Source of the DNA: a virus
Length of the DNA: 64,000 bases
Direction: 5' to 3' (one strand)
IMG/VR virus record: IMGVR_UViG_3300037760_000179
Location: 1-64,000 of that record
How positions within the stretch are numbered: the stretch's first letter is position 1; every line of letters starts with the position of its first letter. Both the position numbers and the translations under genes were made by a program. This document shows positions 35,411 through 52,930 of the stretch, in pieces. The notes beneath the pieces were generated by a model, which saw only the letters and a program-made list of their open reading frames with translations, searched no databases and was not told the origin of the DNA.

Positions 35411-38400
35411 CTAGTTCTCCTCCGTGTTGGCGCCGGTCAGGGCCGGCAGCTTGCTGAAGATCCGCTCGTCCTCGTCGGCCTCGGCAGCGGCCACGTCCTG
35501 CGGCTCACCCACCTTGCCCTTCGGCTCGACCGGAACGACCAGACCCGGCTCCAGGCTGGCCAGCACCTCGCGGGCGCCGTCCGGGTCGGCCTCCCACGCC
35601 TTGGCCCAGTGGTCCCGGCGGGCGGGGGCGATACGCCCGTCGCCGACCGCGGCCTCGATGATGCGGTCCCGGTCCTCGACCCGCTGCCGCTCGGCGGCCT
35701 GCGCGCCCAGTTCGGCCTTGGACCGCAGGTCCTCCAGGGTGGCCGCCTCGATGGTGACCACCCCCTCGGGCAGGCTGGCCGCGACATTGGCCGGCTCCGG
35801 CGGCTGCTCGGCCTTGTCCGCCAGGGCGAGCACGGCAGCATTCACCTCGTCCGGGTCCGCGTCTTCGGCCAGGCCGAGCCGCTCCAGCGCCTCATTGCTC
35901 AGAGGCATGTCATCCTCCTCGGTTGATGGGTTTCCCGGCTCGGCGGCCGGCGTCTTGGTGTGCGGGTCTGCTGCGGAAGCCTGGGTCGTCCGGTCGAAGT
36001 CGAGCGACTCGAACTTCGCCACCGATGCCGCCAGCCGCAGCACCTCGTCGATCGGCCGGTCTACGACCAGCCCGGTGACGGTCATGTCCGGGCGTGCCCC
36101 GGATGCGCGCACCGCGGCGGCACCGGACCACCGGTGGTGCCCGTCGACCACGTACCCGTCGTTGGAAGTAACCAGCAGCCCGCCGGGTAGCCATCCGTCC
36201 TTGGCCATGAACCCGTACAGCTTCCCGGTCTTCGCGCCGGAGATCTCCGACTGCGACGGCTTGAGCGTCGTCGGGTCGATCGTCTCCTGCCAGACTTCGA
36301 CACCCTGCGCACGCAACAGGTCCAGGAACGGCCGCATCTCCTCCTCGTTGGTGCCGAGCTGCGGCATCTTGGACCGGTCGAGGGCGTCGGTCTTGTCGGT
36401 TGCGAACAGGGTGCCGTACCCGCCGACATCCAGGCGGGCGAGGTTGGCGCGTTTGGCTTCGTCGCCGCCGCCGGTCAGCGTCTTCAGGAGCCCATCCAGC
36501 TCGGTGGCGTCAATGGATGCGCCCTCGCCGCGGGCCAGGGCGTCGTAGGCGCCGCGGATGGCCCTGTCGCCACCGCTGGCCTTGCCGCCTGGGCGCCGCT
36601 GGGCGGTCCGCCGGAGCAGCTTCCCGTCCGGGCCGTACCGGCGGCCGTGGGTCATCTGGTTGTGGCTGGCGTGCGCCTCCACATCCGGCCGGGACTCGGC
36701 GGCCGACGCGTACACCATCCGGGACGCGGCCACCCGCTCCGCGTCGTCACCCTGTTCCACGTATTCGACCCGCACCGGCACCGGCGGGCTGAACCGGATC
36801 GCGCCGTCGTCGTCGACGTCGAAGTCGACCCGCGCCACGGTGCCGTCGCCGTCGTTGGCGACGATCAGCCGCCTCGGCTGGGTATGGAACTCGCGAATCC
36901 ACGCCCGGTCCGGCGCCTGCGCGTAGTAGGCGGTGCGCACATCATCGACCGACACCGCCGCGGCGGCGTGCACCATCGTCGGGTTCGGGTTCGGCAAGGT
37001 CATCTCCCCCTCGGAGGCGTCCACAGTCCGCCCGTCGTCGTCTTCGTCGTCCGGGTCCGGGTCAACGGCCGGGATGCCGGTGGCGGGCCTGTCGAAGCTG
37101 ACGGTGGCAAACCAGCCGGCCAGGAGCTGCTTCTCTTCGGCCCGGCCGACCGCAGCGTCCTCGCCTGCAACGGCGGCAGCGGCGACCCACGCCGGGTCAC
37201 GCACCCAGCCGGCAAACACCGTCGGATTGATATAGCTCGATAGAGCCAGGGTGGGGGTGTTGCCAAGCGCGGCAGAGACCTTCTCGGCCACCTCGCGGCG
37301 GCGCTGCTGAAACTCCCGCTTCGTCTTCGGCACGCTCCGCCGCTTCGCCACCTCCCGCAACGCGACCATGTTGGCGTGCACCGTGCGGAGATCCTTGAGC
37401 AGGAACCCCGCTGGCACACCGGTGGAGTGCATGTAGTCGCGGGTGTGGGCCTCGGTGGTGTCGAGCAGCCGGTCGTCACCTGTCCGGGTGGACAACCGCC
37501 GCGACAACGCGGAGACGATCACCGGGTCGGCGGTCTCCAGCTGGATGTGGACACCCTTCTTGCCGATGAAGTCGAACCGGGCGGTGCCGCCCTCGACGGT
37601 GACGTGCCGGGCCAGCAGCGTGGTCGCCCCGTACGCCTGCTGCGACGCGCCGGTGTCGCGGGTCGACCCCGGCCGCATCCCGAGCCGTCGGATCAGCAGC
37701 AACGCCGCAGCGTCGTCGTTCGTCGCCGCGTCGCGTTCCACCGCATGGTCCAGCTTGTCCAGGTGCTCGTTCAGCTCCCGCACCCGCTGAAACTTGGCCG
37801 CCGCCTGCCCCTGCGTGTGCGCGGTCGAGTAGATCGCCTGCCGGCGGCCCTTGCCGTCGCGGCCGGTCACCAGCAGCGGCGCGTTGTCGAGGTCGTCGGC
37901 GAGGTGAACGTCGGTCCACGCCGGGGGGATGGACTTGCCGAACCGCTCCCGGAAGCTGCCGATCTCATCCGGTGTGGCCGGGTGCATCAGATCGACCCAC
38001 CGGCCGTCGCGGGGGTCACGCGGCTGGTCCGGGTCGAACGCGGCTACGTCACCCGCCGCGGACACCTTGCCCACGTTGCGCCGGTCACCGGGATAGACGC
38101 CTGTAAACTGCTTGTGGTAGACGCTGCACAGACCCTTCGGGTCCCGGACATACTTCCGGAGCTGCCGTACGCACCGCGTCCAGTCCCCGGGAGTGTTCCA
38201 CCGGATCTTCAGGCCGCCTTTGCCGGCGGGGCTCCAGTACCGCCGCAGCGGCGCGTCGGAGCGGGTGATCCGGCGGGACTGCTGCGCCTGCACCTCGACG
38301 GCCGGGGCTGGCATATCGTCGTCGGTCAGACCATCCACGTCCAGGTCCGAGCCCTCACCGGAAAGCGGGGTGTCGACGTTCTCGCCAGCGAACGCGACCC

Positions 38401-40759
38401 TGATCCGGTCCATCCTGACCGGCCCGGCCCGGTCGGCGAGGTGGGCCACGTTCATCAGGTCGTCGGAGTAGACCAGCGTCAGGTGCGGCCGGTAGGGGGC
38501 GTGCTGTTCCGGCAGGGCCAGCCCGTGCTGCCTGGCGGCCTCGGCAACAGCGGCCTCGGTCATGCCTTGCACGTCTTCGAGCCCGTCGCCGCCCAGCTCC
38601 AGCACGATCGCCGTGTCCTTGTCGGCCCGGTGCGGGTTGAACGCGGCCAGAGCCATGCCGTCGACCTCGCCCGGTGGGATCACCTCGGCCAGGTCCCGGA
38701 CGGCCTCGACGATCGCCTGCCGCGCGTCGGGCGGGTAGGCGTCGGCGTCACCGAGGAACAGCAGCGTCACGTGCAACTGGTCCTGGTCTTCGCCGCCGTC
38801 GGTGGCCAGCCGTTCGGCGTCGGCGGGTGACGGGAGCAGGGCAACCATCGCCCCCGACTTCACGTCGGACGCGGCAGCAACCTGCACCAGCGGGGGTGCC
38901 CCGCTGCCCGACCCGGCCGCCACCGTGACGCCCCGGGAGGTCGACCGGCGGACGGAGGAGAAGTAGAACAGGTCGGCAGCCTCGGCGACCTCCTCGACGT
39001 TGTCGAAGGCGCGGGGCAGAGGATGGTTCAGCGTGTTCGGCCACGACATTGACCAGCCGCCAACCTCGGCGCGCATCGTCAAGGCCGAGGGCGGTCCACC
39101 AGGCTCGCCGGGTGGGCCGTCGCGGGACACGACCACCGCACCGCCGGGCAGGTCCACCCGCAACGCGGTCAGGTCCGCCTCCGGGTCGGCAGTCTGGCCG
39201 AACTCGTCGAAACCCTCGTCGACGATGTTGATCGCGTAGCCGATGCGCTGCCAGTCGGCGAAGCTGTACCGCAGGTCCACCTGCCCGCCGTCGGGGGTGG
39301 GGGCACGCAGCCCCACCTGGTTGCCGTCGAGGAACACGTCCACCGGTCCGGAGGCGGTGTCGGCGCGGCCAGCGGCCGACAGCAGCACCACCGTGTCGGC
39401 GAGCTGCCGGGCCTCGCCCCGGGTCAGCCGGTGGGTGGTGTCGTCGGCGAGCAGCTCCAGCTGCCAGCCGTCGCCGTCGGGGGTGATCTGCGCGAACCCG
39501 GTCGGCGGGCTGGTGCCGGGGGTGTAGGTGGCGGCGGACACCGTGCCGTCGATTTCTTGCGGTCGCAGGTTCAGCAGCCGGCTCAGCTTCCCCGTCGCCT
39601 CCGCGTCCAGCGCCCCGGACGAGTTGGACCCGTAGGACAGGTGAACACCGTCTGGGCGGGCGTCCACGGTCAACGCCCCGGCGGCGGTTTCCAGGACGGT
39701 CGACAGGATGCTGCCAGCCGGTCCGTCGGTCCACCGGCCGTCGCGGGGGTCACGCGGCTGGTCCGGGTCGAACGCGGCTACCGCCGTACCGGCCAGGGCG
39801 GCGAACACCGGGCCGAGTACCTCGTCCACCACCCGCTGCAACGCGTCCCGCACCGGCTCCACGTCGTCCGGGTCCAGCTGGATCTCGGCCTGCTCCTCGT
39901 CACCTTCCCAGCCGATGGTGACCAGCCCGTTGCCGTACAACGCCAGCTCGACTTCGCTCCTCAGGCCCACCGAGTAGATCAGGGTGTTGGATGCGGCGTT
40001 GTCGGGGATGTCCACGTCGAGCAGGTCGTCCAGCCCGTCGACCAGCTCCTGCGTCTCGTCGGTGGTGAGGGTGGTTCCGACGGTTCCGGCGGCGCCGAAG
40101 GTCAGGTCCACGTCGCCGACGTCGTCGGCGCGCAGGTGCAGGTCTCCGGAGGACGTTTCCAAGGTGACGCGTGGCAGGCCGGGACCGCCGCGGCCGCGGT
40201 TGCCGTGGGTCTGCTGGTTGTGCCCGCCGCGCAGGTGCGCCACCACGGCGGTGCCGGCGTCAGCCTGGACCCCGTACAGGGCACCCACATCCTGCAACGA
40301 CTTGAGGGTGCCCACCCCGGGTGGGGTCACGCCGAGCAGCGCCACCGCGGTCAGCACGAACGGGTGGGTGTGGCCGATCTGGCAGCGGTGGTCGTAGGAG
40401 CCCTCCACGGACCGGTCCGGGTAGGCCGATGCGGCGATGTCACCCAACCAGCCGGGCATGCCCACGAAGTCGCCGACGAGGGTGTGGCCCTGGTTCGTCA
40501 GGGCCAGGTTGTCAACCCAGCCGACGGCGGGGACACCGGTCGGGTTGCCGGCCCACAGCGGCGTCTCACCGCGGGAGTGGCCCAGCTTCAGCACCGGCCG
40601 GCGGACGGCAGGGCACTTCAGCGCGGCGGCTGCGGCTACCAGGTCGTCACGGGAGGCGGTCCACTGCCCGGTGCTGATCTTCCACTGGCCGGTGTGGACC
40701 AGCTCGACCCGGTTCAGCCGGGCCAGCGGCGGGGCGGTGGGCACGGCGATCTCGACCAC
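35411..40759 (-). CDS. Prohead protease/scaffold polyprotein with 2H phosphoesterase, topoisomerase IB and ParB-like modules
   Basis: N-terminal Mu gpI-like protease (LKLGH, PAVGWV, YPDRSVE, LTAVALLG..PPGV); HVT/HLT motifs; TopIB motifs; DGHHRW; C-terminal scaffold AVGDGRIAPARRDHW. Confidence 0.85.
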   Translation of the reverse strand: MVEIAVPTAPPLARLNRVELVHTGQWKISTGQWTASRDDLVAAAAALKCPAVRRPVLKLGHSRGETPLWAGNPTGVPAVGWVDNLALTNQGHTLVGDFVGMPGWLGDIAASAYPDRSVEGSYDHRCQIGHTHPFVLTAVALLGVTPPGVGTLKSLQDVGALYGVQADAGTAVVAHLRGGHNQQTHGNRGRGGPGLPRVTLETSSGDLHLRADDVGDVDLTFGAAGTVGTTLTTDETQELVDGLDDLLDVDIPDNAASNTLIYSVGLRSEVELALYGNGLVTIGWEGDEEQAEIQLDPDDVEPVRDALQRVVDEVLGPVFAALAGTAVAAFDPDQPRDPRDGRWTDGPAGSILSTVLETAAGALTVDARPDGVHLSYGSNSSGALDAEATGKLSRLLNLRPQEIDGTVSAATYTPGTSPPTGFAQITPDGDGWQLELLADDTTHRLTRGEARQLADTVVLLSAAGRADTASGPVDVFLDGNQVGLRAPTPDGGQVDLRYSFADWQRIGYAINIVDEGFDEFGQTADPEADLTALRVDLPGGAVVVSRDGPPGEPGGPPSALTMRAEVGGWSMSWPNTLNHPLPRAFDNVEEVAEAADLFYFSSVRRSTSRGVTVAAGSGSGAPPLVQVAAASDVKSGAMVALLPSPADAERLATDGGEDQDQLHVTLLFLGDADAYPPDARQAIVEAVRDLAEVIPPGEVDGMALAAFNPHRADKDTAIVLELGGDGLEDVQGMTEAAVAEAARQHGLALPEQHAPYRPHLTLVYSDDLMNVAHLADRAGPVRMDRIRVAFAGENVDTPLSGEGSDLDVDGLTDDDMPAPAVEVQAQQSRRITRSDAPLRRYWSPAGKGGLKIRWNTPGDWTRCVRQLRKYVRDPKGLCSVYHKQFTGVYPGDRRNVGKVSAAGDVAAFDPDQPRDPRDGRWVDLMHPATPDEIGSFRERFGKSIPPAWTDVHLADDLDNAPLLVTGRDGKGRRQAIYSTAHTQGQAAAKFQRVRELNEHLDKLDHAVERDAATNDDAAALLLIRRLGMRPGSTRDTGASQQAYGATTLLARHVTVEGGTARFDFIGKKGVHIQLETADPVIVSALSRRLSTRTGDDRLLDTTEAHTRDYMHSTGVPAGFLLKDLRTVHANMVALREVAKRRSVPKTKREFQQRRREVAEKVSAALGNTPTLALSSYINPTVFAGWVRDPAWVAAAAVAGEDAAVGRAEEKQLLAGWFATVSFDRPATGIPAVDPDPDDEDDDGRTVDASEGEMTLPNPNPTMVHAAAAVSVDDVRTAYYAQAPDRAWIREFHTQPRRLIVANDGDGTVARVDFDVDDDGAIRFSPPVPVRVEYVEQGDDAERVAASRMVYASAAESRPDVEAHASHNQMTHGRRYGPDGKLLRRTAQRRPGGKASGGDRAIRGAYDALARGEGASIDATELDGLLKTLTGGGDEAKRANLARLDVGGYGTLFATDKTDALDRSKMPQLGTNEEEMRPFLDLLRAQGVEVWQETIDPTTLKPSQSEISGAKTGKLYGFMAKDGWLPGGLLVTSNDGYVVDGHHRWSGAAAVRASGARPDMTVTGLVVDRPIDEVLRLAASVAKFESLDFDRTTQASAADPHTKTPAAEPGNPSTEEDDMPLSNEALERLGLAEDADPDEVNAAVLALADKAEQPPEPANVAASLPEGVVTIEAATLEDLRSKAELGAQAAERQRVEDRDRIIEAAVGDGRIAPARRDHWAKAWEADPDGAREVLASLEPGLVVPVEPKGKVGEPQDVAAAEADEDERIFSKLPALTGANTEEN
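37997..38047. repeat. 51-bp exact direct repeat, copy 1
   Basis: Identical to 39731-39781; encodes VAAFDPDQPRDPRDGRW on the minus strand. Confidence 0.9.
39731..39781. repeat. 51-bp exact direct repeat, copy 2
   Basis: Identical to 37997-38047. Confidence 0.9.
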
Positions 40760-41061: not shown

Positions 41062-44000
41062 TCAGGTTCCCCTGCTGGCAAAGGCGTCGAGCACATCCGC
41101 GAGGCTGCTGGCGACGTCCGCCGCCTCCCGCGAGCCGTACGGGTTGCGCTGCTTGTCCCGCACCTCGTCAACGATCGCACGCAGTTTCGCCGACGCTGCG
41201 GCGAAGTCACCGGTTGCGTCGCCCTCGGCCAGGATCTGTTCGATCCGGGGCAGGTCAACCGAGTACCGGATCCGGTCGAAGTCTCTCTGGAACCGGCTGC
41301 GCACCCCGTCGAGCGGCTGCGGGACCCGCTGCCGGTAGTCATTCTCCAGCCGCCGGGCGGCGGACAGAGCGAACCGTCGCGCCTCGTAGCCGTTGTCCCT
41401 GGCCTCGGTCAGTCCGTACTCGCGTAGCCGTGCGGCGGTAGCCAGATCACGGTCCGGGTCGCTGCCGGCCCGCAGCATTTCGATGATCTCGTCTCGGTGC
41501 TGCGGGTCCAACCCAACCAGGGACATAGCGCCGAGCCCGTCGCCCCGGTACTGGCCCTGTAGCAGCGGCTCCCGCAGCCTTTCGGGCACACTGCGGTCGA
41601 CTTTCGCCTTGACCGCGAGCATGTTCCACGTACCGCTCCGGTCCAGACCGGGAGTCTGCGCACGCAGCATGCCGACCACCTCGCCGACACCAGCCCCATC
41701 GGCCCTGCGCCACTCGGCCAGGTCGATGCCGGTGTTCCACGGGATGCCCGCCCCCTCGACGGCCTCGGCGAACGCTCTGGCTTCCTTCTGGGTGCGGAAA
41801 CCGCTCAGAACTGGAGCGTTGCGCATGACACGCGGGACAACGATGTCGTAGCCGCTTCTACCCTTCATCACCAGCAGTTGGCCGCTCGGGGACAGCAAGC
41901 CCCACTTGGCCCCGGCGTCATCCGGAATCCGGTCCGCGAGCGCCTCGTCGGCCTCTAGCCACGCGGTCAACTCGCCGAGCCCCTGGAATCCCTCACCGGA
42001 GTCCAGCCGGGTCTTGATGTCGGCAAGTTCGGCGGCCTTCCTCGCCGCCGCCTTCTCCGCCGGATCCGTGGGCTCCGGCGTCTCGCCCCGCCGGGCCAGT
42101 TCCTGTTTGAGGTTCCGGTCGACCCGCATGAAGCGTTCCTGCGCCTGCTCCAGGGCGTCCTGGTCGCGGAACGGCCGACCCACCCGGGCGCGCAGTGCCT
42201 CAATGTCCTGGCGGGCCTCGCGGGTTCTGGCGACGTGGCGGGTGAGGGTCCTCTCCATGCGGCCGAGGGCGTTCTGAAGATCGCCGATGACGTCGGTCGA
42301 GTTGAGGTCGCCGCGGCGAACACTGACGGACCCGGGTACGCCGACCAGCTCGACGCTGAAGCCGGTTTCTGTCCGGCCGGCCCGCAGCGGGAACCCCCGA
42401 AACTCTCCGATCACGGTGGGCGCGTCGCGTGCTGTCCGGATCTGCTTGCGCAGCTGCTGCTGCGCCTCGGTCCGGTCCCGGTAGTCGGTGCCGCCGAGGG
42501 ATATCTTGAACCTCTTGCCATCGACACGCTTGGGAAGCGCTTCGTTGATCTGGGCGATGGCCTGTTCGGACCGGGCGACGTCGGCCTCACCGTCGGTGAT
42601 CCGCTTAGCGATGTTGCGCTGGTCAGCCTCGTGGTTACGCCGCGCCCGCTGCAACCGCGTCAGATCGGCGCTGGCGTCGGCGTGCTCGATCAGCCACCGG
42701 TTGCCGGTCCCGAGGGCGGTGACTTCCTGCGCGGTCAGCGCGAACTCGCCGACATCGTCCACCTCGCGCACATCCAGCCGGCCCCGCATGACCTGGTTGA
42801 TGAACGTGCTCTTGGTCGTGATCGCCTGCCAGATGTACGCGTCGAACGACTGCTCGGTCACGTACCGGATGACCTCTACTTCGGGGTTCTTGTTGCCCTG
42901 CCTGACGATGCGGCCGTCGCGCTGCTGCACGTCGACCGGCCGCCACGGCGCGTCCACATGGTGCAGCGCAACCGCCCGGTCCTGCACGTTGGTCCCGACG
43001 CCCATCTTGGCAGTGCTGCCGACCAGAACAGCCACCCGGCCGTCTCGGGCAGCGGCGAACAACTCGGCCTTCTCCTGGTCGGTGTTCGCCTCGTGGATGA
43101 ACCGGACCCTGTTGCGGGGGACGCCCCGCTCGACCAGCTTGTCCCGCAGCGCCTCGTAGGCGACGAAGTCGGCCAGGCCGCTACCAGCCTCGTCCTGGTC
43201 GGACCCGCTGGTCTTCTTCCTCTTGCCGCCGGGGGTGCCGATGTCGCTGAACACCAGTTGCAGCGCACCCGGGACGCCGACGGGGTTGCCGGCTCGGTCG
43301 GTGTACACCGCATCCTTGTTCTTCTCGTAGATGGCCGCGATCTTGCCGGCGGCGACGTCCAGCTTCGTCGGCTCGGCGGTGTCGCGTCCCACCATCTGAA
43401 GGTCCAGCGCGGCGGCCCGCCCCTCGCCGGTGATCTTCAGCATGTTGTCGCCGCCCTTTTCGGGCGGGTACGGAATCGTCTTGGCGCGGGCGACCAGCTG
43501 CTCCATGAAGTCCAGCAGTTCCTGGCTGGGCGGCACCACCACGGTCTCCGGCGCCCGGGTACGGTTGCCGTCGGCGTCGACCCGCTCCACCAGGTCGGGA
43601 GTCTTGACGATGTCCTTCAGGTCATCGGCGGTCTTCACGTCGGAGGCGACCAGCCACGGCCGCAGGAACTCCGGCAGGTTCACGAACTTCGCGAACCGGG
43701 AGTGCTGCCGCAGCCCGCCGGTCGGCGCGACCTCCAGCCTGGTGGTCATCTCGCCGAAGTTCGCCGCCCACTCGTCGAATGTCTCGACGCCCATGTCCTC
43801 AAGCAGGTCCGGACGCAGGTAACGCATCATCGTGTACGCCTCGGACACCGAGTTGGCGATCGGTGTCGCGGTGGCCAGCGTCGCCACCCGGTCGTTACGC
43901 GAACGCAGGTGGTGCAGCTTCATGTGCAGATCGGTGGCGATCTGACTGCCGGGAATGCCCAGGCCCTGAATGCCCGACGGGGTACGGAGGTTCTTGTAGG

Positions 44001-47000
44001 TGTGGGCCTCGTCCATGAACAGGTAGTCGATGCCGGTGCTCTCGAACGTCAGCCCCGGGTCCCGGTCGGTGCTGCCGACCTGGTCCTTGATGCGCTGCTC
44101 GGCCTTCTCGACCTGCCCCTCAAGCTCCTTGACGGTCGGGTCGTTGTCCAGCGCCTCCCCTACCAGCTTCCGAAGCGCCTCGTCGCTGGCGCCTTCGTTG
44201 TCGGCGCGGACCCTCTCCACCACCTGGGCGCGGCGCCTGGCGGCCGACCGCCGCAGCGGCTCAACCTCCCCCGCCAGGTAGTCCCGCTCGGTCTCGCTGG
44301 ACACCGGAATCCGCTTGAACGCGCCCTGGGTGAGGATCACCGCGTCCCAGTCGCCGGTGGCTGCCTTGGCGACGATCTCGCGCCGCTTCTCGCCGCCCTT
44401 GTCGCCCTTCAGGTCGTCGGACCCGATCGCGAGCACACGCGCCTGCGGGTAGCGCTCCAGGAACTCGCTGGTCATCTGCTCCAGCATGTGGTTGGGCACG
44501 ACGATGGCGGGCTTGCGCACCAGACCCAACCGGCGCATCTCCATCGCACCGATGACCATGGTGGTGGTCTTGCCGGACCCGACCTCGTGCCACAGGCCAA
44601 CCGAGGGCTCGGCGATGATCCGCCGGACAGCCGCGCTGCGGTGCGGGAAGGCGTAGAAGCCGTCCCGGTTCAACCCTGGCAACTCCAGGTCCGAACCGTC
44701 GTACGAACGCAGCACCAACGAGTTGAACCGGCGGTTGTACGTGTCCTGAAGGTCCCTCTGCCGGGTGGGGTCTTCCCACAGCCACTCGGCGAAGCGGTCT
44801 GCCATCTCCTGGGCCTTCGCCTGCGCCTGCTCGGTCTTGTCCCGGTTGAGCTTGCCGTCCTCGGTGACCCGGATCGGCTTCTGCCCCAGGATGTCCTCGG
44901 CGATGTCGACGCCGGACATCTCCCGGATGCCCCACTCGGTGGTCGCGGCGGTGCTCCGCTTGCGGTCCGACCTGACCTTCCAGGCGTTCGCGTGCGGACG
45001 CTCAACGGTCAGCGTCGGGTCCCGCAGGATCTCCCGCAGGAACTGCTGCACGTACGCCGGTTCGATCCACCCGGCGCCCATCTTGGCGTTGATGTCAACC
45101 GGGGTCAGGTCCGGCGGCAGGACCCGCTCCAACGCCTCCACGTTCGGCGCGAACGCGTCCGGGTCCTCGGCCGCAGCCAGGCGGGCCACGTCGAGCTTCT
45201 GCCGCACGTTGCCTGACAGGTACTCGGCCGCCGGTGCGAGCCGGCCGCTACCTGGCTCGTCGAAGACCAACGTACCGAGACGGTCCCGGGCGGTCGGCTC
45301 GTCGACGTCGAGCAGGTCAGCGATGTGGGCCAGGTCGACCTCGCCGAGCTGGTCCACGGTGATCGCCAGCGCGTCTGCGGCGCTTTCCGCGCTGGTCCTG
45401 GGGGTGCGGGGGGCGATCGTGCGACGGTGGAAGATGTCGGTCTTGGTGGCGTTGCCCGTGAGCGGGTCGTAGTTCTCCAGGGCGCGCACCGCGGCCGAGA
45501 ACGGGTCGCTGCGGAATCCGCCCTGCGGTGGGCGGGTGCGGGTGACCCGCTGCTCCTCAACGTCGTCCTCGTCCTCGCCGCCCTTCGGGGCGCGCCGCTT
45601 CTCCGTGAAGCGGCTGACCGGCCCCCACTTGGCGACGTAGCCGTCGTAGATCTCGTTGAGGTCTTCGCGGAGCCGCTTCATCTGCTCGGTGTCGTCGCCG
45701 CTGGAAGCCTCGGCGTTGACCAGGTCGATGCTGGTGTCGCGCAGCCGCAACAGCTCCCGCAGCTCCTCCCGCTGTGTCGCGGGAACCTCGTGCGGCTGCT
45801 CCACCCCGCGGGTGACACGGCTGAAGGTGCCGTCCGGGAGGGCACGCAGGAACCCCTCGGGCACACGGTCCGGCCCGGTTTCGGCGAACGCGGGACGCGG
45901 GCGCTGCCCGGGGGTCTGGGTCAGCCCCATCGCCTGAGCCCGTGAGACGACCTTGTCCAGCGCCTCCCTCAGCGCCGGCCCAGCGTCCGCGTCGCCGCGA
46001 ACACCGAAGGCATCCTTTGGTCCGCTGCCCATGACCATCGTCCCGAGCACCATGTCGGGGTTGTCGAGGAAGTGCCCGTTGACCGACACTTCCCGGTCGT
46101 CGTCGCCGATGGTGATCTTCCGGGCAGCCTGGAACGGCAGCCCGGCATACGGCGTGTCGGGCTCGCGGCGGCGGAACACCAGCAGGTCGGTCACCACCGC
46201 CGTGCCGGCCGCCTTCTCGTGCGCCCGCGACGGCAGCCGCACCGCCCCGACGAGGTCAGCCAGTTCGGCCATTTCCTCCCGCGCGGCCGGGCTCATCGAG
46301 TCCATCGTGTACCGGGAGGTGATGAACGCCCCGATCCCGCCCGGGCGGGTCATCCGCAGCGACTTGAGGATGAAGTGGTTGTGCATGTTGTGACGGCGGC
46401 CCGGGTTGTACTCCGGGTCAACCAGCTTGGTGTCGGAGAACGGCACGTTGCCGATGGCGGCATCGAAGGCACCGTCGCGCGTCTTGGTGTCAGTGAACGA
46501 CTCTGCCCGCACGTCCGCGTTCGGGTACAGGGCGGCCGCGATCGAGGCGGTGATCGGGTCCAGTTCCACCCCGGTCACGTGGGTGTCGGGTGCGACGTCC
46601 TCCGGCACCATCCCCATGAACGTGCCCGACCCGCTGCCCGGCTCCAGCACCTCGCCGCCGTGGAAACCGAGGCCTCGCACGGCGTCCCAAATCGCGGCGA
46701 CGTAGTCCGCGTCGGTGTAGTGCCCGGTGCGGGTCGTTCGCCGCGCCGCCGCGAACTCCTCCGGCGTGAGCAGGTCCTTCAGCTCGGCCTGCGCGTCGGC
46801 GAACCTGCCACGCGGGGGTGGCTCCTTGAACACGTTGGGCAGCGAACCCCACCCGGACCAGCGGGCCAGTTTCGCCTGGTCCTCAGCCGACGCCGGCCGG
46901 CCGGATTCTTGCAGGTCCCGCAGGGTCCGCAGCGCCACAAGGTTGGCGTCCAGCCGCTTGGTCGCCGTGTTCGGCGCGAGGTCGGCCTGACTGCGCGGGC

Positions 47001-49950
47001 GGAAAACCTGGGTGGCGTCTACTCGCCAGTCTCGCCCTCCGGCGCCTCGTCGTCCTCCGCCCGGGGCAGCATCTCCGCCAGCACTTCCCGCTCCGCGGTC
47101 GGCCGGGCCGCCATCATCCGTTCCCACCGCTCCTGGAACGGCCGGTCCGCCGGGATCGTCTCCTCCAGCGCCTCCGCCCGGTCGAGTACCCGGGTCTCGA
47201 TCTGTTCCCCCAGGTTCTGGAAGAACGTCTCCCGGCTGCTCATCTGGGCGTACTCCGCCGGCCGGTACTTCTGCCAGTGCGCCATCGCCATCCGGCCGTA
47301 CTGATTCATCCGAACCCGGCCCCCCTCTGTCGACCTCTGGCAGGACGGATCGTAGCAGCGCCTGGCCGATCTCCTCCCGCGTCGCCGATTTCGACACCTC
47401 GACTCCACGGCGGACGGCGGTGCGGCGCAGCTGGTCCCCGCTGAACCCTTCCAGCGGGTCACCGGCCTGGTTACCGGCCTTCCAGGTCTCGATGCGGGCG
47501 GCCAACCGCTCGCGGAACTGGCCACCCTTGCCGCCTAGGGTGCCTTTAGGCCAGCGTGGATGGTGGTCAGCATTCCATGCCGCCTCGACGTCGCCATCGC
47601 CGTCGAGTTCGCCAGCCACGCGGGCCAGCGCCCACAGCAAGTCCTCGATGTCATCGTCGGCTGCGCCGTCCGCACTGTCAGCCCGGCGGCGGCGGCTGAT
47701 CCGCGCCCGCAACTGGCCTCGGCAGCGGCTGCGCCCCTCGCACTGCCAGTACCGGCCCACCGGGTAGTCAGCCAGCGCCCCGGCCAGCGTCTCGTACACG
47801 GTGCCGTCGATCTCGCGGCACGGACCGCACGTGTTGGTGTCGTTGCGCTCGTCCGCCACCCACACCACCGGCACGCCCAGCGCCTGTAGCCCGCGGAACA
47901 CCGCCGCACGGCCCAGATGCACCGCAGCGTGCACAGCAGCTGCAAGCTCCCCGGCGACAAACCCCCGCGCCGCGCCGCGCTGCTGGGTGGTGGCGGTGGA
48001 AGTCAGATCCTCGGCCGCCCGGGTGACCGCGGCGGCGGCGTCGTCGGGGTCGGCGTCGGGGCCGGCTGCCAACACGGCCCGGGCAGCGGCGGACGTGTAG
48101 CCGCCGACGATCAGGTGGGCGGTGGCGTCGGCCAGCTGGTCCAGCCGTGCCGTGTCCACGTCGGGTAGGCCCGGGTCGGCCCCCTGTGCGGCGACCGCGG
48201 ACCGGGCGGTGCGGGCCGACGTGGCGGCCACGTCACGTAGCTGCGCCCGCAGCCCACCGGCCACCGCCCCGACCAGGCTGGGGCCGACCGTCAGTGTCGC
48301 CAGGGTGGCGACGGTTCCGGCGGAGGCGGCTTCGGCTGCGGCCTGGGCCAGCGGCGGCACGATGGGCGCGGCCAGCAGCGGCCAGGCGGCCAGCAACGCC
48401 AGCAGCGCGGCGGACGAGTCTTCCTCGACCTGCCGCATCTCGTCCTCGGCCTGCTGCTGCTCGTCCTGTTCGGTCTGGGCGGCGACGAACAGGTCCGGCT
48501 GCTCGTACCGCACCGGGCCGGGCGGTGCGGCAGCCTGCACCGGGCCGGATGGCGCCGGCTTGGGCTCAGGCCCGGGCGGGGTCGGCCCGGGTGCGGGACT
48601 GCCTCCGGCCGGCGGGTCCTGGCCGGGCACCTGCACCGGCCGACTGCGGTCCGGCGCCGGCAGCCGGTACTCTTTGCGGACCCACTCCTCCAGCCCCGGA
48701 TCGGCTGACAGGGCACCGGAGGCCAGCAGCAGCTGCAACGACTCGGCGGTCACCTCACGGCGTGAGGCGATCCCCGACGCCCACACCTTCGGCACCGGCT
48801 CGTCTTCGTCGTCCCAGTTCCACGCGACCAGCCGGGCGGCGACCTGCCGGGTCACCACGTCGGCGATCTCCTCAGCGATGGACTCCAGGGCCAGCGTCCA
48901 AGCGTCGATGAACGCGACGCCCAGCGCCCTGTTGCCGGTGGCGGTCTGCCCGAGGTCGAGGTGGCCCATCAGCGCCATGGTGGACATCTGCTGGTCCAGC
49001 CACTTCACGAAGCCCATCGTGTCCGGGGTGCCACCGGACAGGCCCACCAGCTCCAGCCACGCACCGGGTGGCATCGCCGCGCCGGCGGTGTCCCCGGCCC
49101 GGGCGGCAGAGGCCATCTGCTGCGCCTGGGTCATCTGCGCCGGGGTCGGTGACATCGACTCCGGCCAGCGGACCACCGGCACACCCATGCCGAACCGGCG
49201 GGAGGAGGTGGCGAGGACCCGCATCATCTCCCGCTTGAACAGCCACGGCGCGAACGCCGGCCTAAGCAGCGAGGTGCCGAACCAGGACGCGCCCTCACGT
49301 TCGTGGCAGTACCACGCCAGCCGGTCCGCGCCGATCTCCGGCTTGTCGAACGGCCCGGCTGCCATCTCCTGGGAGATGCCGGCGAACGTGCCCCGCCGGG
49401 GCTCCACGTGGATCTGGGTGATGGTGTGCTGCGGCCGGTCCCACAGGCCGACCAGGTGCGCCCGCCCGTCGCCGCCGATCTTGGCCTCAAGCTCGAACCC
49501 GGCATGCCCGAACGGGAGCATCGTCAACGCCGAGCGGAGGTGGTCGTGCCACGACAGGCCGTGGGCCGTTCCCACACCCGGGTTGTCGCGGCCGATCACC
49601 GGCAGGTCCAGGTCGTGGGCCACCAGGTCGACCACCTCGCGGCGGCAGCCGGTGGCGTCGATCTGCCAGGTGGCACGCAGCAGCATGTGGCAGTAGCCGG
49701 CCAGCACCGCCGCCAGCTTCGCATCCCGCCGCATCGCGTTGTAGGTGGTCACGGACTGGGGCCACGCCACGTCCGGTACGGTCTCCAGGGCGTCGACCAG
49801 CAGCCCCTCGTACGCCGAGTCCTCGACGTACCCGCGCAGCGACGTGGGCGGCTTGAACACCTTGGCGCCGTTGGCGTGGGCGGCCATGATGTCCGCCGGG
49901 TGCGCCATCACCGTGGCGCCGTTGACCGGTCCGTCTGGCAGCGGGTCCAC
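41062..49950 (-). CDS. Portal (DUF935/Mu gp29-like)-MuF-N6 adenine methyltransferase-SNF2 helicase (DarB-like) polyprotein
   Basis: Portal (YNAMRRDAKL, GTSLLRPAF.PW..K, RFGMGVP); MuF (DTNTCGPC..IDG, CEG..RCRG); MTase (LEPGSGSG, GVELDP, GNVPF); helicase (HEVGSGKT, DEAH, ATATP, QRDGRIVRQGN). Confidence 0.85.
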   Translation of the reverse strand: MDPLPDGPVNGATVMAHPADIMAAHANGAKVFKPPTSLRGYVEDSAYEGLLVDALETVPDVAWPQSVTTYNAMRRDAKLAAVLAGYCHMLLRATWQIDATGCRREVVDLVAHDLDLPVIGRDNPGVGTAHGLSWHDHLRSALTMLPFGHAGFELEAKIGGDGRAHLVGLWDRPQHTITQIHVEPRRGTFAGISQEMAAGPFDKPEIGADRLAWYCHEREGASWFGTSLLRPAFAPWLFKREMMRVLATSSRRFGMGVPVVRWPESMSPTPAQMTQAQQMASAARAGDTAGAAMPPGAWLELVGLSGGTPDTMGFVKWLDQQMSTMALMGHLDLGQTATGNRALGVAFIDAWTLALESIAEEIADVVTRQVAARLVAWNWDDEDEPVPKVWASGIASRREVTAESLQLLLASGALSADPGLEEWVRKEYRLPAPDRSRPVQVPGQDPPAGGSPAPGPTPPGPEPKPAPSGPVQAAAPPGPVRYEQPDLFVAAQTEQDEQQQAEDEMRQVEEDSSAALLALLAAWPLLAAPIVPPLAQAAAEAASAGTVATLATLTVGPSLVGAVAGGLRAQLRDVAATSARTARSAVAAQGADPGLPDVDTARLDQLADATAHLIVGGYTSAAARAVLAAGPDADPDDAAAAVTRAAEDLTSTATTQQRGAARGFVAGELAAAVHAAVHLGRAAVFRGLQALGVPVVWVADERNDTNTCGPCREIDGTVYETLAGALADYPVGRYWQCEGRSRCRGQLRARISRRRRADSADGAADDDIEDLLWALARVAGELDGDGDVEAAWNADHHPRWPKGTLGGKGGQFRERLAARIETWKAGNQAGDPLEGFSGDQLRRTAVRRGVEVSKSATREEIGQALLRSVLPEVDRGGPGSDESVRPDGDGALAEVPAGGVRPDEQPGDVLPEPGGTDRDPGTRPGGGAGGDDPGGPAVPGAVGTDDGGPADRGAGSAGGDAAPGGGRRGAGGRDWRVDATQVFRPRSQADLAPNTATKRLDANLVALRTLRDLQESGRPASAEDQAKLARWSGWGSLPNVFKEPPPRGRFADAQAELKDLLTPEEFAAARRTTRTGHYTDADYVAAIWDAVRGLGFHGGEVLEPGSGSGTFMGMVPEDVAPDTHVTGVELDPITASIAAALYPNADVRAESFTDTKTRDGAFDAAIGNVPFSDTKLVDPEYNPGRRHNMHNHFILKSLRMTRPGGIGAFITSRYTMDSMSPAAREEMAELADLVGAVRLPSRAHEKAAGTAVVTDLLVFRRREPDTPYAGLPFQAARKITIGDDDREVSVNGHFLDNPDMVLGTMVMGSGPKDAFGVRGDADAGPALREALDKVVSRAQAMGLTQTPGQRPRPAFAETGPDRVPEGFLRALPDGTFSRVTRGVEQPHEVPATQREELRELLRLRDTSIDLVNAEASSGDDTEQMKRLREDLNEIYDGYVAKWGPVSRFTEKRRAPKGGEDEDDVEEQRVTRTRPPQGGFRSDPFSAAVRALENYDPLTGNATKTDIFHRRTIAPRTPRTSAESAADALAITVDQLGEVDLAHIADLLDVDEPTARDRLGTLVFDEPGSGRLAPAAEYLSGNVRQKLDVARLAAAEDPDAFAPNVEALERVLPPDLTPVDINAKMGAGWIEPAYVQQFLREILRDPTLTVERPHANAWKVRSDRKRSTAATTEWGIREMSGVDIAEDILGQKPIRVTEDGKLNRDKTEQAQAKAQEMADRFAEWLWEDPTRQRDLQDTYNRRFNSLVLRSYDGSDLELPGLNRDGFYAFPHRSAAVRRIIAEPSVGLWHEVGSGKTTTMVIGAMEMRRLGLVRKPAIVVPNHMLEQMTSEFLERYPQARVLAIGSDDLKGDKGGEKRREIVAKAATGDWDAVILTQGAFKRIPVSSETERDYLAGEVEPLRRSAARRRAQVVERVRADNEGASDEALRKLVGEALDNDPTVKELEGQVEKAEQRIKDQVGSTDRDPGLTFESTGIDYLFMDEAHTYKNLRTPSGIQGLGIPGSQIATDLHMKLHHLRSRNDRVATLATATPIANSVSEAYTMMRYLRPDLLEDMGVETFDEWAANFGEMTTRLEVAPTGGLRQHSRFAKFVNLPEFLRPWLVASDVKTADDLKDIVKTPDLVERVDADGNRTRAPETVVVPPSQELLDFMEQLVARAKTIPYPPEKGGDNMLKITGEGRAAALDLQMVGRDTAEPTKLDVAAGKIAAIYEKNKDAVYTDRAGNPVGVPGALQLVFSDIGTPGGKRKKTSGSDQDEAGSGLADFVAYEALRDKLVERGVPRNRVRFIHEANTDQEKAELFAAARDGRVAVLVGSTAKMGVGTNVQDRAVALHHVDAPWRPVDVQQRDGRIVRQGNKNPEVEVIRYVTEQSFDAYIWQAITTKSTFINQVMRGRLDVREVDDVGEFALTAQEVTALGTGNRWLIEHADASADLTRLQRARRNHEADQRNIAKRITDGEADVARSEQAIAQINEALPKRVDGKRFKISLGGTDYRDRTEAQQQLRKQIRTARDAPTVIGEFRGFPLRAGRTETGFSVELVGVPGSVSVRRGDLNSTDVIGDLQNALGRMERTLTRHVARTREARQDIEALRARVGRPFRDQDALEQAQERFMRVDRNLKQELARRGETPEPTDPAEKAAARKAAELADIKTRLDSGEGFQGLGELTAWLEADEALADRIPDDAGAKWGLLSPSGQLLVMKGRSGYDIVVPRVMRNAPVLSGFRTQKEARAFAEAVEGAGIPWNTGIDLAEWRRADGAGVGEVVGMLRAQTPGLDRSGTWNMLAVKAKVDRSVPERLREPLLQGQYRGDGLGAMSLVGLDPQHRDEIIEMLRAGSDPDRDLATAARLREYGLTEARDNGYEARRFALSAARRLENDYRQRVPQPLDGVRSRFQRDFDRIRYSVDLPRIEQILAEGDATGDFAAASAKLRAIVDEVRDKQRNPYGSREAADVASSLADVLDAFASRGT
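47019..47309 (-). CDS. TnpV-like small protein nested in an alternative frame of the portal polyprotein
   Basis: MNQYGRMAMAHWQKYRPAEYAQM...FFQNLGEQI...AEREVLAEML; purine-rich RBS; host frame here is low-complexity G/P/D. Confidence 0.7.
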   Translation of the reverse strand: MNQYGRMAMAHWQKYRPAEYAQMSSRETFFQNLGEQIETRVLDRAEALEETIPADRPFQERWERMMAARPTAEREVLAEMLPRAEDDEAPEGETGE

Positions 49951-50109
49951 AACCCACCCCCCTCGGTGCCGGGTCGGTCCGGGAGTTCAGCCGGTCGGGT
50001 GTCGGATACCGGACGCGGGGGTTGCCCGGGCGCTACCCATGCGAGGACCATGGCCGGGAAGTGGGCGCACCCCCGGCGCCCCTCCAGACCCGCGCAGGAG
50101 ACGCCGATC

Positions 50110-50358: not shown

Positions 50359-50380
50359 TCGCGCTGGGCTGCCTGGACGG

Positions 50381-52930
50381 CTAGAACGACACCGTCTCCA
50401 GGTCCACCTGGCCGTTGCCGCCGAACGGGTCCGGGTCGGGGTCCGGCGCACCTCCTACGGTGGCGTGCCCGGCCCGGTTCAGCAGCGGCGCCCACTTGGT
50501 GATCGACACCCGCGTCGCCAGCGACCCGACGTCCACGGTGTCGTCGTGCGCCGCCGCCGGGAACGCCGCGTGCTCATCGATCCACGTCGGCAGCCAGTGA
50601 GCACCGGCCGGCAGCCACACCCGCCCACCCGAGCACCACGCCGAGTACGGCAACGCCCGGGACAGCTTGTCCTGCTCGGCCTGAACCGGCGAGACCGGCA
50701 CGCCACTCTGGGTGGCCTCCTTCACCAACGTGAACCCGTACTGGGACGCCTCCGCAAACAGGGTGTCCAGTTGCCACCGCTCCACCAGCGGCCGGGCCTG
50801 CGCGAAGTGCTGCTCCTCGCCGATCTGCGCCCGGGTCACGTCCAGCAACACCAGGTCCCCGGCCAGCGTCCGCGCCCATGCGGCGATCACCGTGTAGTCG
50901 GCCGAAGTGCGGGTGGACGCGGCAAGGTCGACCGTGCCGAACCGCCACGAGTCCCGCAGGTCCGCAACCCGGCCACCGAGGTAGATCCGGTGCTCTCCGG
51001 CGGGGGTCCAGTACCGCCACCAGAGGCGCTTGAACAGGTTCCCCTCGGCGGGTGCCGGCCGCTGCTGGAACAGAGCCGCCCACACGTACTCGCCGACGTC
51101 TTTGCGGCGTTCTTCCCAGTCCTTCGCGGTCCGGCCGCGGGCGGAGGTCATGTACTCGCCCTCGGCGCGACCGAGCAGGTCCGTTTTCGGGTTCTCGCAC
51201 TGGGCGGGGATCGAGACGACCCGCCACTTTCCGCCGGCGGCCTTGTCGCCCTCGGTCTCCAGCAGCTTGCCAGCGAGGTCGGATTCGTGCCAGCGTGTCG
51301 TCATCAGCAGCACTTTGCTGTTCGGGCCGAGCCGGGGAATGGCCACGGCCTGCCAGAACCGCCACGCGCGCTCGCGGTATTTGACCGAATTCGCCTGTTC
51401 GAGGTCTTTGTGAGGATCGTCTATAATGAGCAGATCCACAGCCTTGCCAGATAGACTGCCAGCGATCCCTACGCATGAGACACTCCCATGTGTACCTCTG
51501 ACCCGCCAGTAACCTGCGGCTGGGCGCTCATAGAGCCGCAGCCCAAGGTCGATCTGATCCTCGGCCCCACTGAACGTCTCCACGTCCAGCCGCAGCTGCC
51601 AGCCCCACCGTCGCGCTATGTCATCGGAGTACGACACTATGGCAACGCGAGTCCCGGCGTCCTGCGTGAGGGTCCATAGGGGAAAGAAGCGGGAGCACCG
51701 CTCGCTATTGTGGGTCGGCAGCATCCCTTCGCCGACCAGGTACAGCCCGTCATCGGTGTCGACCGTGATGCAGCGGCCGACGTTCGGGGCCTCTGCCGCG
51801 ATGGCGGTTATCGAGGTGCGCTTCCGGGCGCCTCCCAGCCGTACCGCAGCCTTGCGCTCCAGTCGTGCCGGCCCTTGGTCGTGCGGAGTGAAGGTGACCC
51901 GCCACATCGCGAGCTTCCCCTGAATCCCCGACGACGAGAGCTTCGGAGGCGTCGGACGGTGCACATGGGCTCGGTAGCCGAGCGTACGGATCAACTCGGC
52001 GGTACTGCGGACCAGGCCCTCGTTGGCGTTGTCGAAACTGACCTGCCCACTCGCGGACACATGCCCGTCCGTGTCGATCAGACCGGCCAGCAGCGCCCTA
52101 CGCTGCCGAGTGGAGGCCCGCAGGTACGCCGCCGGGATGTGCTTGTTGCCGAAAACGCCGGCCTCACGCAGGTCACGCTGCATTTGGCCGCTGTAGTACG
52201 TGGTGATGATCCCGGTGGTTGGATGGACGCAGCGCGCGGTCGCGGTGTAGGCCATCTCGTAGCAGTCGTCCGGGTGGTGCGTGATGGCGGGCTTGGTCGT
52301 GCTGCCATCGCCGAGCCACACGCCAAGCGTGTACGGCTCGACGGGAAGGTCGACATCCGGGCAGTCAAGGGCCTCACGCAGCGGCAGGAAGAAGCGGTAC
52401 CAGTGGCCGCGCTTTCCCGGCGGCCCCGACGATAGAGGGACGGCGGCGAGCTGCCTGGTCTCCATCGTGAGCCAGCGTCCACGCTTACGATCCCAGACCG
52501 TCCACTCATGCGCAGGGTGGACCAGGATTGATGTGTGGTCGCTGAAGTGGACGCGCAGCGAGGCCATCGCGGGCTCGTGGACCTCCGCCACCTTGACCTG
52601 CCGCCCACTGGGGTGGAACACGACCGACCCAGGACGCAAGTCACCGTGCCGGACCCACCCATCAGGCGTTGGTACGCGGGTGTCGTCCGCTACCAGCTTG
52701 CCTTCCTGAGGTGGAGCGAAGATCATCAATCTCTTGTCGCGCCCGTCGGCGAGATCCAGCAACGCCTGGTCGACGAGCCGCAGCGCCGGGGTCTGGATCA
52801 TCCGGTTGTCAAGCTCAACCGCCATGTCCCCGGGCGCGGCCCAGCGGCGCGGCTTGGACTCGAACGAGCGGGCGGCATACTCCCAAGGTGACAGCTCGGG
52901 GCGCCTGTCCATCATCACCATGCGAACCAC
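50381..52930 (-). CDS. terL: Terminase large subunit (intein-containing)
   Basis: PPQEGK|S Walker A split by intein; LIIDDPHK, TRWHESDL, FQQRP, VDLA, HDDTVD. Confidence 0.95.
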   Translation of the reverse strand: MVRMVMMDRRPELSPWEYAARSFESKPRRWAAPGDMAVELDNRMIQTPALRLVDQALLDLADGRDKRLMIFAPPQEGKLVADDTRVPTPDGWVRHGDLRPGSVVFHPSGRQVKVAEVHEPAMASLRVHFSDHTSILVHPAHEWTVWDRKRGRWLTMETRQLAAVPLSSGPPGKRGHWYRFFLPLREALDCPDVDLPVEPYTLGVWLGDGSTTKPAITHHPDDCYEMAYTATARCVHPTTGIITTYYSGQMQRDLREAGVFGNKHIPAAYLRASTRQRRALLAGLIDTDGHVSASGQVSFDNANEGLVRSTAELIRTLGYRAHVHRPTPPKLSSSGIQGKLAMWRVTFTPHDQGPARLERKAAVRLGGARKRTSITAIAAEAPNVGRCITVDTDDGLYLVGEGMLPTHNSERCSRFFPLWTLTQDAGTRVAIVSYSDDIARRWGWQLRLDVETFSGAEDQIDLGLRLYERPAAGYWRVRGTHGSVSCVGIAGSLSGKAVDLLIIDDPHKDLEQANSVKYRERAWRFWQAVAIPRLGPNSKVLLMTTRWHESDLAGKLLETEGDKAAGGKWRVVSIPAQCENPKTDLLGRAEGEYMTSARGRTAKDWEERRKDVGEYVWAALFQQRPAPAEGNLFKRLWWRYWTPAGEHRIYLGGRVADLRDSWRFGTVDLAASTRTSADYTVIAAWARTLAGDLVLLDVTRAQIGEEQHFAQARPLVERWQLDTLFAEASQYGFTLVKEATQSGVPVSPVQAEQDKLSRALPYSAWCSGGRVWLPAGAHWLPTWIDEHAAFPAAAHDDTVDVGSLATRVSITKWAPLLNRAGHATVGGAPDPDPDPFGGNGQVDLETVSF
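51707..52696 (-). mobile_element. 330-aa intein with LAGLIDADG homing endonuclease, class-3 signature
   Basis: LVADDTRVPTPDGW ... HPAHEW ... LGVWLGDG ... LLAGLIDTDG ... RCITVD ... PTHN|S. Confidence 0.9.

Follow-up and report, generated by a model that had tools for sequence, protein, structure and literature searches.

A single open reading frame joins a phage portal, a MuF-like domain and a DarB-like methylase-helicase, with a nested gene in its linker

We analyze a 64,000-nucleotide stretch of viral DNA (hereafter, the window), the first 64 kb of IMG/VR record IMGVR_UViG_3300037760_000179, a 93.7-kb genome rated 99% complete by CheckV. The GC content of the window is ~70%, and the source is an uncultured tailed phage that is probably actinobacterial. 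On the minus strand, one giant open reading frame (ORF) of 2,962 codons carries a portal domain, a MuF-like domain and a complete DarB-like dyad of N6-adenine methyltransferase (MTase) and SNF2 helicase. What is new is the complete DarB dyad on a portal-MuF carrier, a large example of the known portal/MuF-cargo theme; a leader common to this portal-borne cargo and to the cargo of a protease/scaffold polyprotein encoded next door; and a conserved gene nested in the tether of the fusion. We lean, with modest confidence, towards a reading in which the DarB-like part would be loaded into the head as an extension of the portal, cleaved off, ejected with the DNA and put to use against restriction. 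For few phages is it known in detail how large head-internal proteins such as DarB find their way into the head and out again, and the locus would offer an explicit solution: a MuF-like domain and a short leader connect the cargo with the portal, and the leader is reused for the cargo of the neighboring polyprotein (P0202). Such a grammar, in which portal or scaffold is followed by leader and then by cargo, could serve to bring proteins of choice into capsids in a set number of copies.

The frame opens with a GTG at 49950 and is continuous in both the ORF listing and its translation, which bears out the original prediction that portal, MuF, MTase and helicase share one unbroken frame. The positions proposed there for the four landmarks all proved correct by Pfam, PHROG and motif reading, and the hidden Markov model domain scan that it had suggested matched Portal_Mu, MTase, SNF2/Helicase_C and phrog_10089 in the giant ORF. 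When full-length relatives were sought among 5.8 billion proteins, three were found (P0003, P0004 and P0005; 2930-3119 amino acids (aa)), each from a separate assembly, 64-75% identical end to end and with the same domain order as the protein of the window (P0001). Because the fusion is present in three relatives from separate assemblies, sequencing error is excluded as its cause. The scenario in which relatives always encode portal and helicase separately, and an error explains the fusion, runs against these three fused relatives, though a further relative (P0203, discussed below) does carry its cargo unfused.

We therefore consider an artifact very improbable, be it a pseudogene or an indel from assembly or sequencing that has merged two genes, portal-MuF and DarB, into one. 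The window does come from a single metagenomic contig, and the joining segment has atypical codon usage: GC content at third codon positions (GC3) is 0.85-0.96 along the giant ORF, with the exception of aa ~861-980. However, this dip is due to a nested gene and not to a frame break; the nested gene explains the atypical usage fully, and the frame is read through in 13/13 loci with the same arrangement. In addition, no start codon that could serve the DarB part by itself is present near aa 984. That the gene structure of the giant fusion is real we hold with high confidence.

The giant ORF is predicted to make the dodecameric portal ring at the capsid vertex. Portal_Mu (PF06074) matches aa 69-430 with E = 1.4e-43 (150 bits, with the cut-off at 23.9; the match spans positions 3-336 of the 336 in the profile) and scores 155 bits in a six-frame search of the genome, and the domain matches the PDB portals 5ngd, 4zjn and 6ibg with E of about 1e-8. 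No second Portal_Mu or Phage_portal match occurs in the 93.7-kb record (other portal families were not searched), and the portal sits between the large terminase and the protease/scaffold/capsid genes. Beyond the full-length relatives, 22 more distant portal relatives (33-59% identity; complete ORFs of 445-766 aa) come from genomes, viral contigs and metagenomes; DarB was found in none of them in scans of viral contigs, GTDB genomes and JGI metagenomes. In 18 of the distant relatives, the portal or portal-MuF ORF stops immediately past the MuF Cys motif.

Behind the portal and a hinge, aa 505-752 are read as a divergent MuF-like domain, an assignment that the predicted fold, the motif and the position support but the Pfam model does not. 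The domain ends in a Cys motif, D-x-N-x-C-x-P-C ... C-x-G-R-x-R-C-R-G, which reads CGPC...CEGRSRCRG at aa 708-745 of the giant ORF. When 14 portal-fused relatives were aligned, those of ~690 aa stopped a few residues past the Cys motif aligning with aa 703-745, and four (L010, L015, L019 and L022) showed the classical MuF ending HxxCRC at the aligned motif. A profile of the domain matched 2,201 proteins among 1.84 billion cluster representatives. Among the best 150 of these, many are stand-alone proteins of 230-350 aa, and many others have the domain at residues ~430-750 of a ~700-aa protein, which we read as portal-fused. The AlphaFold2 (AF2) model of the domain (pLDDT 83) was compared by Foldseek with BFVD, and the 50 matches considered (probabilities 0.94-1.00, TM 0.30-0.56) were mostly named ‘minor capsid protein’, ‘phage head morphogenesis domain’ or, in actinophages, ‘capsid maturation protease’; the last we take to be MuF-protease fusions under the SEA-PHAGES naming. 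Of 40 members of the MuF-like family, 23 match phrog_595.

The cargo proper is recognized by phrog_10089, ‘DarB-like antirestriction’, which matches aa 953-2641 with E = 0, and by three colinear BLASTP segments to P1 DarB (2e-16, 1e-19 and 5e-12; 23-28% identity). The closest relatives of the module are ‘helicase-related’ genes of actinobacterial plasmids; with aa 953-2641 as the query, 96-98% of it is covered at 43-46% identity. The MTase has motif I (EPGSGSGTF) at aa 1103 and motif IV (NVPF, within GNVPF) at aa 1168, and the helicase has GSGKT (1791-1795), DEAH (1980-1983), TATP (2027-2030) and QQRDGR (2342-2347). All of these are invariant across nine relatives, in agreement with the earlier view that the catalytic motifs are intact. 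Neither Pfam nor PHROG gave a match in the C-terminal 322 aa. With MTase, SNF2 and further regions behind portal-MuF, and all of it within the head module, the giant ORF is a polyvalent protein. The portal-MuF-DarB order is borne out, as is the earlier proposal that an anti-restriction-type enzyme would be placed in the head. Judging by its fusion to the portal, the module may be packaged there, ejected and protect the DNA from type I restriction.

Between carrier and cargo, a leader of ~20 residues follows the spacer after the MuF-like domain. It is 81-85% identical among four homologues, compared with 37-57% in its flanks. A regular expression for the leader has exactly three matches in all six frames of the genome versus 0.14 expected, and all three copies stand at domain joints of two head polyproteins, one in the giant ORF and two in P0202, where the form is V-x-A-A-F-D-P-D-Q-P-R-D-P-R-D-G-R-W. 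Within P0202, two 56-nt repeats (37992-38047 and 39726-39781; 96% identical and 1,734 nt apart) both encode VAAFDPDQPRDPRDGRW; a weak third copy of the repeat (63%) is seen at 47399-47454 in the portal fusion. In other MuF-cargo proteins, the leader stands directly behind MuF (P0093, P0131, P0179 and P0150) or farther downstream of it (P0186).

P0202 opens with a head-maturation protease domain (aa 8-177; phrog_3894, E = 5e-97) and continues with a 2H/LigT phosphoesterase at ~625-800 and a topoisomerase IB at ~976-1185; a ParB-like DGHHR motif lies within the segment at ~1405-1586, and residues ~1587-1760 make up a scaffold end of Mu gpI type. The polyprotein is a candidate both for the processing enzyme and for a second carrier of enzyme cargo. 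The version in a Polymorphospora relative (L003) has 650 aa and the 2H domain only. As the same leader marks the joints of both head carriers and a protease is encoded next to the fusion, proteolytic release is plausible, and a cut by the head protease at or near the leader is likewise plausible but unproven. A literature search on cleavage of the Mu portal gpH gave nothing usable. Downstream of the leader, we infer a SAP-like segment at aa 835-868.

The stretch that follows is not a plain joint between MuF and DarB: it is dual-coded with a nested TnpV-like gene. At aa 881-977, GC3 of the main frame is 0.40-0.57 and GC at codon position 1 is 0.88-0.95; because the peak falls on the first codon position of the main frame, the coding signature in this segment is that of the +1 frame. 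The nested protein matches TnpV (PF14198) weakly and below threshold (E = 1.2e-3; 19.3 bits, with the cut-off at 27), an Atlas cluster in which 33% of the members are TnpV has a score of 0.87, and PGAP names the positional homologue in the Arthrobacter plasmid pA58H1 ‘TnpV protein’. Eight close homologues of 91-116 aa are called as genes, and the gene is matched in 14/401 genomes of the order that contains Plantactinospora. The AF2 model of the nested protein is helical (pLDDT 86), and Foldseek found no PDB match with E <= 0.001.

We examined the nesting at 13 loci: that of the phage, ten chromosomal loci (L025-L034) and two plasmid loci (L038 and L039). The DarB frame stands at the same -1 offset to the nested gene in 13/13, and the frame of the coding signature changes at the nested stop. 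Over the nested ORFs of these loci together, the DarB frame has 0 stops and the other sense frame has 64. In 10/10 chromosomal loci, the DarB frame is already open from 85-244 nt 5' of the nested ATG, and in most of the ten a conserved N-terminal peptide, M-basic-QLSFDxLLWG, lies upstream of that ATG. Most loci lack a start codon in the interval from the nested ORF to the conserved ‘FRP..Q.DLAPSG’, where DarB homology starts. When codons were shuffled synonymously, the product of P(zero) over the loci was ~10^-10, with the phage locus alone uninformative (P = 1). Given the conserved offset, the absence of stops and the shuffling result, reading through the nested gene is the native translation of the DarB cassette, and the low-complexity linker is a selected dual-coded region rather than the mark of a broken gene. 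The phage has swapped the cassette's own N-terminus for the in-frame portal-MuF-leader carrier. The basic-QLSFDxLLWG start found in chromosomal versions is missing from the phage DarB-like ORF. The QLSFDxLLWG peptide of the chromosomal ORFs (L025-L033) resembles beta-clamp-binding motifs, either QLxLF or the QLPLWG of mycobacterial ImuB.

Other routes through this region were considered. The constant -1 offset and the lack of a start at the junction could suggest a programmed -1 frameshift from the nested ORF into the DarB frame; this was set aside, as the nested ORFs have no X_XXY_YYZ heptamer close to their ends, and as the DarB frame is already open ahead of the nested ATG and encodes the conserved N-terminal peptide there. 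Nor does any signal support a +1 shift that would take ribosomes out of the portal frame and into the nested one, with a short product of ~977 aa. Termination-reinitiation was rejected because no canonical start codon follows the nested stop.

DarB-like genes of actinobacterial plasmids and phages thus hold a conserved same-strand nested gene in a disordered linker, and current annotation seems either to overlook it or to misplace its start. In the single record that we inspected, that of pA58H1 (L038, NZ_MH067974.1, 2064-7564), PGAP starts the ‘helicase-related protein’ 237 nt past the TnpV stop; DarB N-terminal homology begins right at the TnpV stop, where no start codon lies, and the annotated start probably truncates the N-terminus of the helicase. 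The nested gene matters for annotating the large DarB-like family and is a clean case for the study of dual coding.

The fusion itself is less widespread than the cassette. Of the 15 proteins closest to the DarB module (64-83% identity), only P0001 and three others carry a portal. P0203 (2,604 aa; JGI/ENA metagenome) shares 78% identity with aa 741-2962, spacer and leader included, and has a 95-residue N-terminus of its own, no portal and a C-terminal zeta-toxin/AAA_33 domain. In P0208, P0209 and P0210, homology starts at aa ~881, the position of the nested ATG, behind unrelated N-terminal regions. These alignments indicate that the cassette (nested gene plus DarB) is mobile between carriers and that the portal fusion is one lineage's solution.

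Could the DarB part come mainly from an internal start, with the fusion no more than a minor or chance by-product of the loss of a stop codon? The GTG at aa 852 has GGAG 5 nt upstream, P0203 shows the cargo unfused with its own N-terminus, long open frames arise easily at 70% GC, and the openness of the linker frame is uninformative for the phage locus alone. Nevertheless, translation begun at 49950 runs through 2,962 codons before any stop, which makes production of the fusion unavoidable. The fusion persists in four diverged sequences along with its conserved leader, V852 is not invariant in the four homologues, and the native N-terminus of the cassette (M-basic-QLSFD..) is absent. No in-frame start codon occurs between aa 942 and 1005, and the stand-alone DarB-like protein P0006 starts at the equivalent of aa 984. 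We judge a predominantly internal start to be unlikely, and place it behind the two functional alternatives weighed below.

In a portal, the C-terminal crown is on the inner side of the capsid, and prohead assembly is nucleated by the portal; any cargo fused to the C-terminus would accordingly be present in each head in 12 copies. In the reading that we favor, the portal would nucleate the prohead and hinge, MuF-like domain, leader, SAP-like segment, linker and DarB-like enzyme would be built in with it, in 12 copies; the head-maturation protease would then cut at or near the leader, leaving a portal-MuF ring of ~85 kDa per subunit and a free DarB-like protein of ~237 kDa; and the freed protein would, like P1 DarB, accompany the DNA out of the head and shield it against restriction in the new host. 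The original prediction had held so large a load to be implausible, a concern that fades on comparison with P1: 12 copies of ~2,200 residues amount to less than the ~45 DarB copies reported there (PMC12810830). What does constrain the scheme is release, since a protein that stays tethered has no way out of the head, and with a shared leader and an adjacent protease, cleavage is the best guess for how it happens. The related expectation of processing is sensible: a protease is encoded next door and the junction leader is conserved.

Alternatively, the cargo might never be released, and 12 modules tethered to the portal crown would act on DNA in the head or in the portal channel, methylating or translocating it during packaging or as ejection starts. 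Both linkers (aa 433-504 and aa 869-980) have the length and flexibility that suit a tether, the C-terminus of the portal faces inwards, cleavage is itself conjectural, and ~700-aa portal-MuF fusions are very common, so a permanent C-terminal appendage is tolerated. Yet the leader at the junction is the same as at the cargo joints of the protease-bearing polyprotein, and a tethered enzyme would give no protection in the next cell unless methylation were finished in the head, where the supply of ATP and S-adenosylmethionine is doubtful. This alternative seems to us unlikely, though it is the one we would turn to first. In a bolder form, which we find unlikely to the same degree as the internal start, the portal would be a built-in DNA-modifying machine: its 12 tethered methylase-helicases would act on the genome as it threads through in packaging or early ejection, the nested TnpV-like gene would encode a dedicated partner or regulator, and the overlap would reflect ancient, selected dual coding of the DarB-like cassette in Actinobacteria.

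A packaged cargo might also serve another purpose, such as host takeover, genome circularization or repair, or the countering of another defense, with the methylase-helicase working together with the packaged topoisomerase IB and 2H phosphoesterase of P0202. Topo IB, 2H/LigT and a ParB-like segment are indeed found in that polyprotein; the module shares just 23-28% identity with P1 DarB, and the closest relatives, the plasmid ‘helicase-related proteins’, have a function by name only. On the other hand, the only experimentally characterized member, P1 DarB, guards against type I restriction (PMC12810830 and PMC5512222), and the catalytic motif of the MTase is conserved. We rate a different role as improbable, ranking it after the tethered form and ahead of the internal start.

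Several points weigh against loading, cleavage, ejection and anti-restriction as a whole. The cleavage site is suggested by motif recurrence, and the anti-restriction role by homology to P1 DarB. Just four fused sequences are known, and the unfused cargo of P0203 means that the fusion is dispensable for this cargo; the GTG at aa 852 with its GGAG could give a separate DarB product. Pfam Phage_Mu_F (PF04233) has no match at E <= 10 in the genome or in the MuF-like segment, matching only 2/40 members of the MuF-like family (best 9.1e-6), and an hhalign comparison of the family with Mu gp30 was negative. The earlier assignment of a MuF domain consequently stands on fold, Cys motif and position behind the portal, and finds no backing in the Pfam model.

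The surrounding genes form a head module in the order large terminase with intein, giant ORF, P0202 protease-cargo-scaffold and capsid gene (Table 1). The terminase of a Plantactinospora prophage relative (L004:7010-9994) is likewise intein-bearing. A gap of 430 nt (49951-50380) separates the terminase stop from the portal start, and all that it contains, on either strand, is short ORFs that overlap. A glycosyltransferase gene (Gly_transf_sug + LicD-like; 31568-32704, minus strand) lies downstream of the capsid gene at a distance of about 1.3 kb, and in Plantactinospora, too, a glycosyltransferase (L004:14569-15630) comes after the capsid gene; these genes may indicate glycosylation of the virion.

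Table 1. Features of the portal-MuF-DarB-like locus and its head module (positions in the window)
Feature	Position	Strand	Extent and remarks	Basis
Portal-MuF-DarB-like ORF (P0001)	41062..49950	-	2962 aa, stop codon included; full length kept in P0003, P0004, P0005	
Shine-Dalgarno-like GAGGGGGG	49957..49964	-	6 nt 5' of GTG start 49950; strong	Read from sequence
Portal domain (Mu / P23-45 type)	48655..49950	-	aa 1-432	Pfam, phrog_113, PDB portals
Pro/Ala-rich hinge	48439..48654	-	aa 433-504; indel-rich, 30-49% identity with many gaps among four homologues	Composition
Divergent MuF-like domain	47695..48438	-	aa 505-752	Motif alignment, homologues, AF2 model
Junction leader VEAA-WNADHHPRWPKGTLGGKGGQFRE	47509..47589	-	aa 788-814	Conservation; motif recurrence in genome and other MuF-cargo proteins
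Putative SAP-like / helix-extended-helix segment LRRTAVRRGVEVSKSATREEIGQALLRSV	47347..47448	-	aa 835-868	Sequence reading; phrog_38661 (function unknown), E 1.7e-5
Dual-coded Gly/Pro/Asp-rich linker	47020..47310	-	aa 881-977; gap-free, 58-77% identity among homologues	GC by codon position
Nested +1-frame TnpV-like gene	47019..47309	-	96 aa; ATG start, TAG stop, GAGGGGGG 10 nt upstream of ATG	
DarB-like module	42031..46998	-	aa 985-2640; N-terminal domain, N6-adenine MTase, middle region, SNF2 helicase, post-helicase region	
N6-adenine MTase	46051-46680	-	Part of DarB-like module; about aa 1100-1220	Pfam/PHROG
SNF2 helicase	42691-44670	-	Part of DarB-like module; SNF2 + Helicase_C at aa 1787-2352	
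C-terminal 322 aa	41065..42030	-	Least conserved cargo part, 49-61% identity among homologues	
P0202 polyprotein	35411..40759	-	1782 aa; protease, 2H/LigT, Topo IB, further domains, scaffold	
Large terminase with LAGLIDADG/Hom_end intein	50381..52930	-	Upstream of portal fusion	
Major capsid protein	33965..34906	-		Pfam Phage_capsid_4

Iyer, Burroughs, Anand, de Souza and Aravind (2017, J Bacteriol; PMC5512222) described polyvalent proteins, in which a dyad of N6A-MTase and SNF2 typified by DarB is a hub module, and effectors (PBECR, 2H, InPase) are fused to ‘MuF and portal domains’. The protein of the window resembles those in having several effector domains in one polypeptide, encoded among late genes beside the portal-terminase system. 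It differs from the fusions given there in that the effector on its portal-MuF carrier is a whole DarB dyad of ~2,000 residues and that a gene is nested in the linker; the combination of portal-MuF with a whole DarB dyad was not found in the keyword-searched passages of that paper. In INPHARED, no cultured phage covers at least 80% of the giant protein.

P1 DarB is a head protein of about 2,000-2,255 aa, present in ~45 copies and co-ejected with the DNA (PMC12810830). It shares with the module described here colinear homology over the MTase and both helicase lobes, including the unusual motif IV GNVPF; the P1 genome, at ~94 kb, has the same size as that of the record, and P1 darB adjoins the portal gene prt and pro. 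In contrast, P1 DarB is a separate protein, divergently transcribed from prt, and is loaded through Hdf/DarA (PMC12810830), whereas loading here would proceed through the portal fusion and yield 12 copies.

Another point of reference is the MuF-cargo toxins beside portals studied by Jamet and colleagues (2017, BMC Biol; PMC5576092), where MuF lies downstream of the portal. The same paper notes that SPP1 gp7, a MuF protein, binds the portal, and it uses portal-adjacent context to define MuF3 and MuF4. Like these polymorphic toxins and SPP1 gp7, the giant ORF has a MuF-type domain at a portal-adjacent position and a variable C-terminal cargo. Unlike the toxins, its MuF-like domain is fused to the portal and too divergent for PF04233, and its cargo is a DNA-modifying enzyme. 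Closer in build are metagenomic portal-MuF-cargo fusions, whose cargo by Pfam is ART (P0093), zeta toxin (P0102, P0183 and P0041) or ClpP protease (P0088). They have the same order, and several carry the leader A-A-[FWY]-[DN]-P-[DE]-x-P-R-...-G-x-W after MuF, but their cargo is 250-700 aa long versus ~2,200 aa here.

The cassette, in turn, is matched by the TnpV + helicase cassettes of Arthrobacter pA58H1 (NZ_MH067974.1) and Micromonospora (NZ_CP108881.1), which are 43-46% identical and have the nested gene at the same offset at the 5' end; unlike the phage version, the plasmid cassettes start with their own M-basic-QLSFDxLLWG and are not linked to head genes. The phage copy lies in a head gene order like that of Mu, namely terminase, portal(-MuF), protease/scaffold and capsid.

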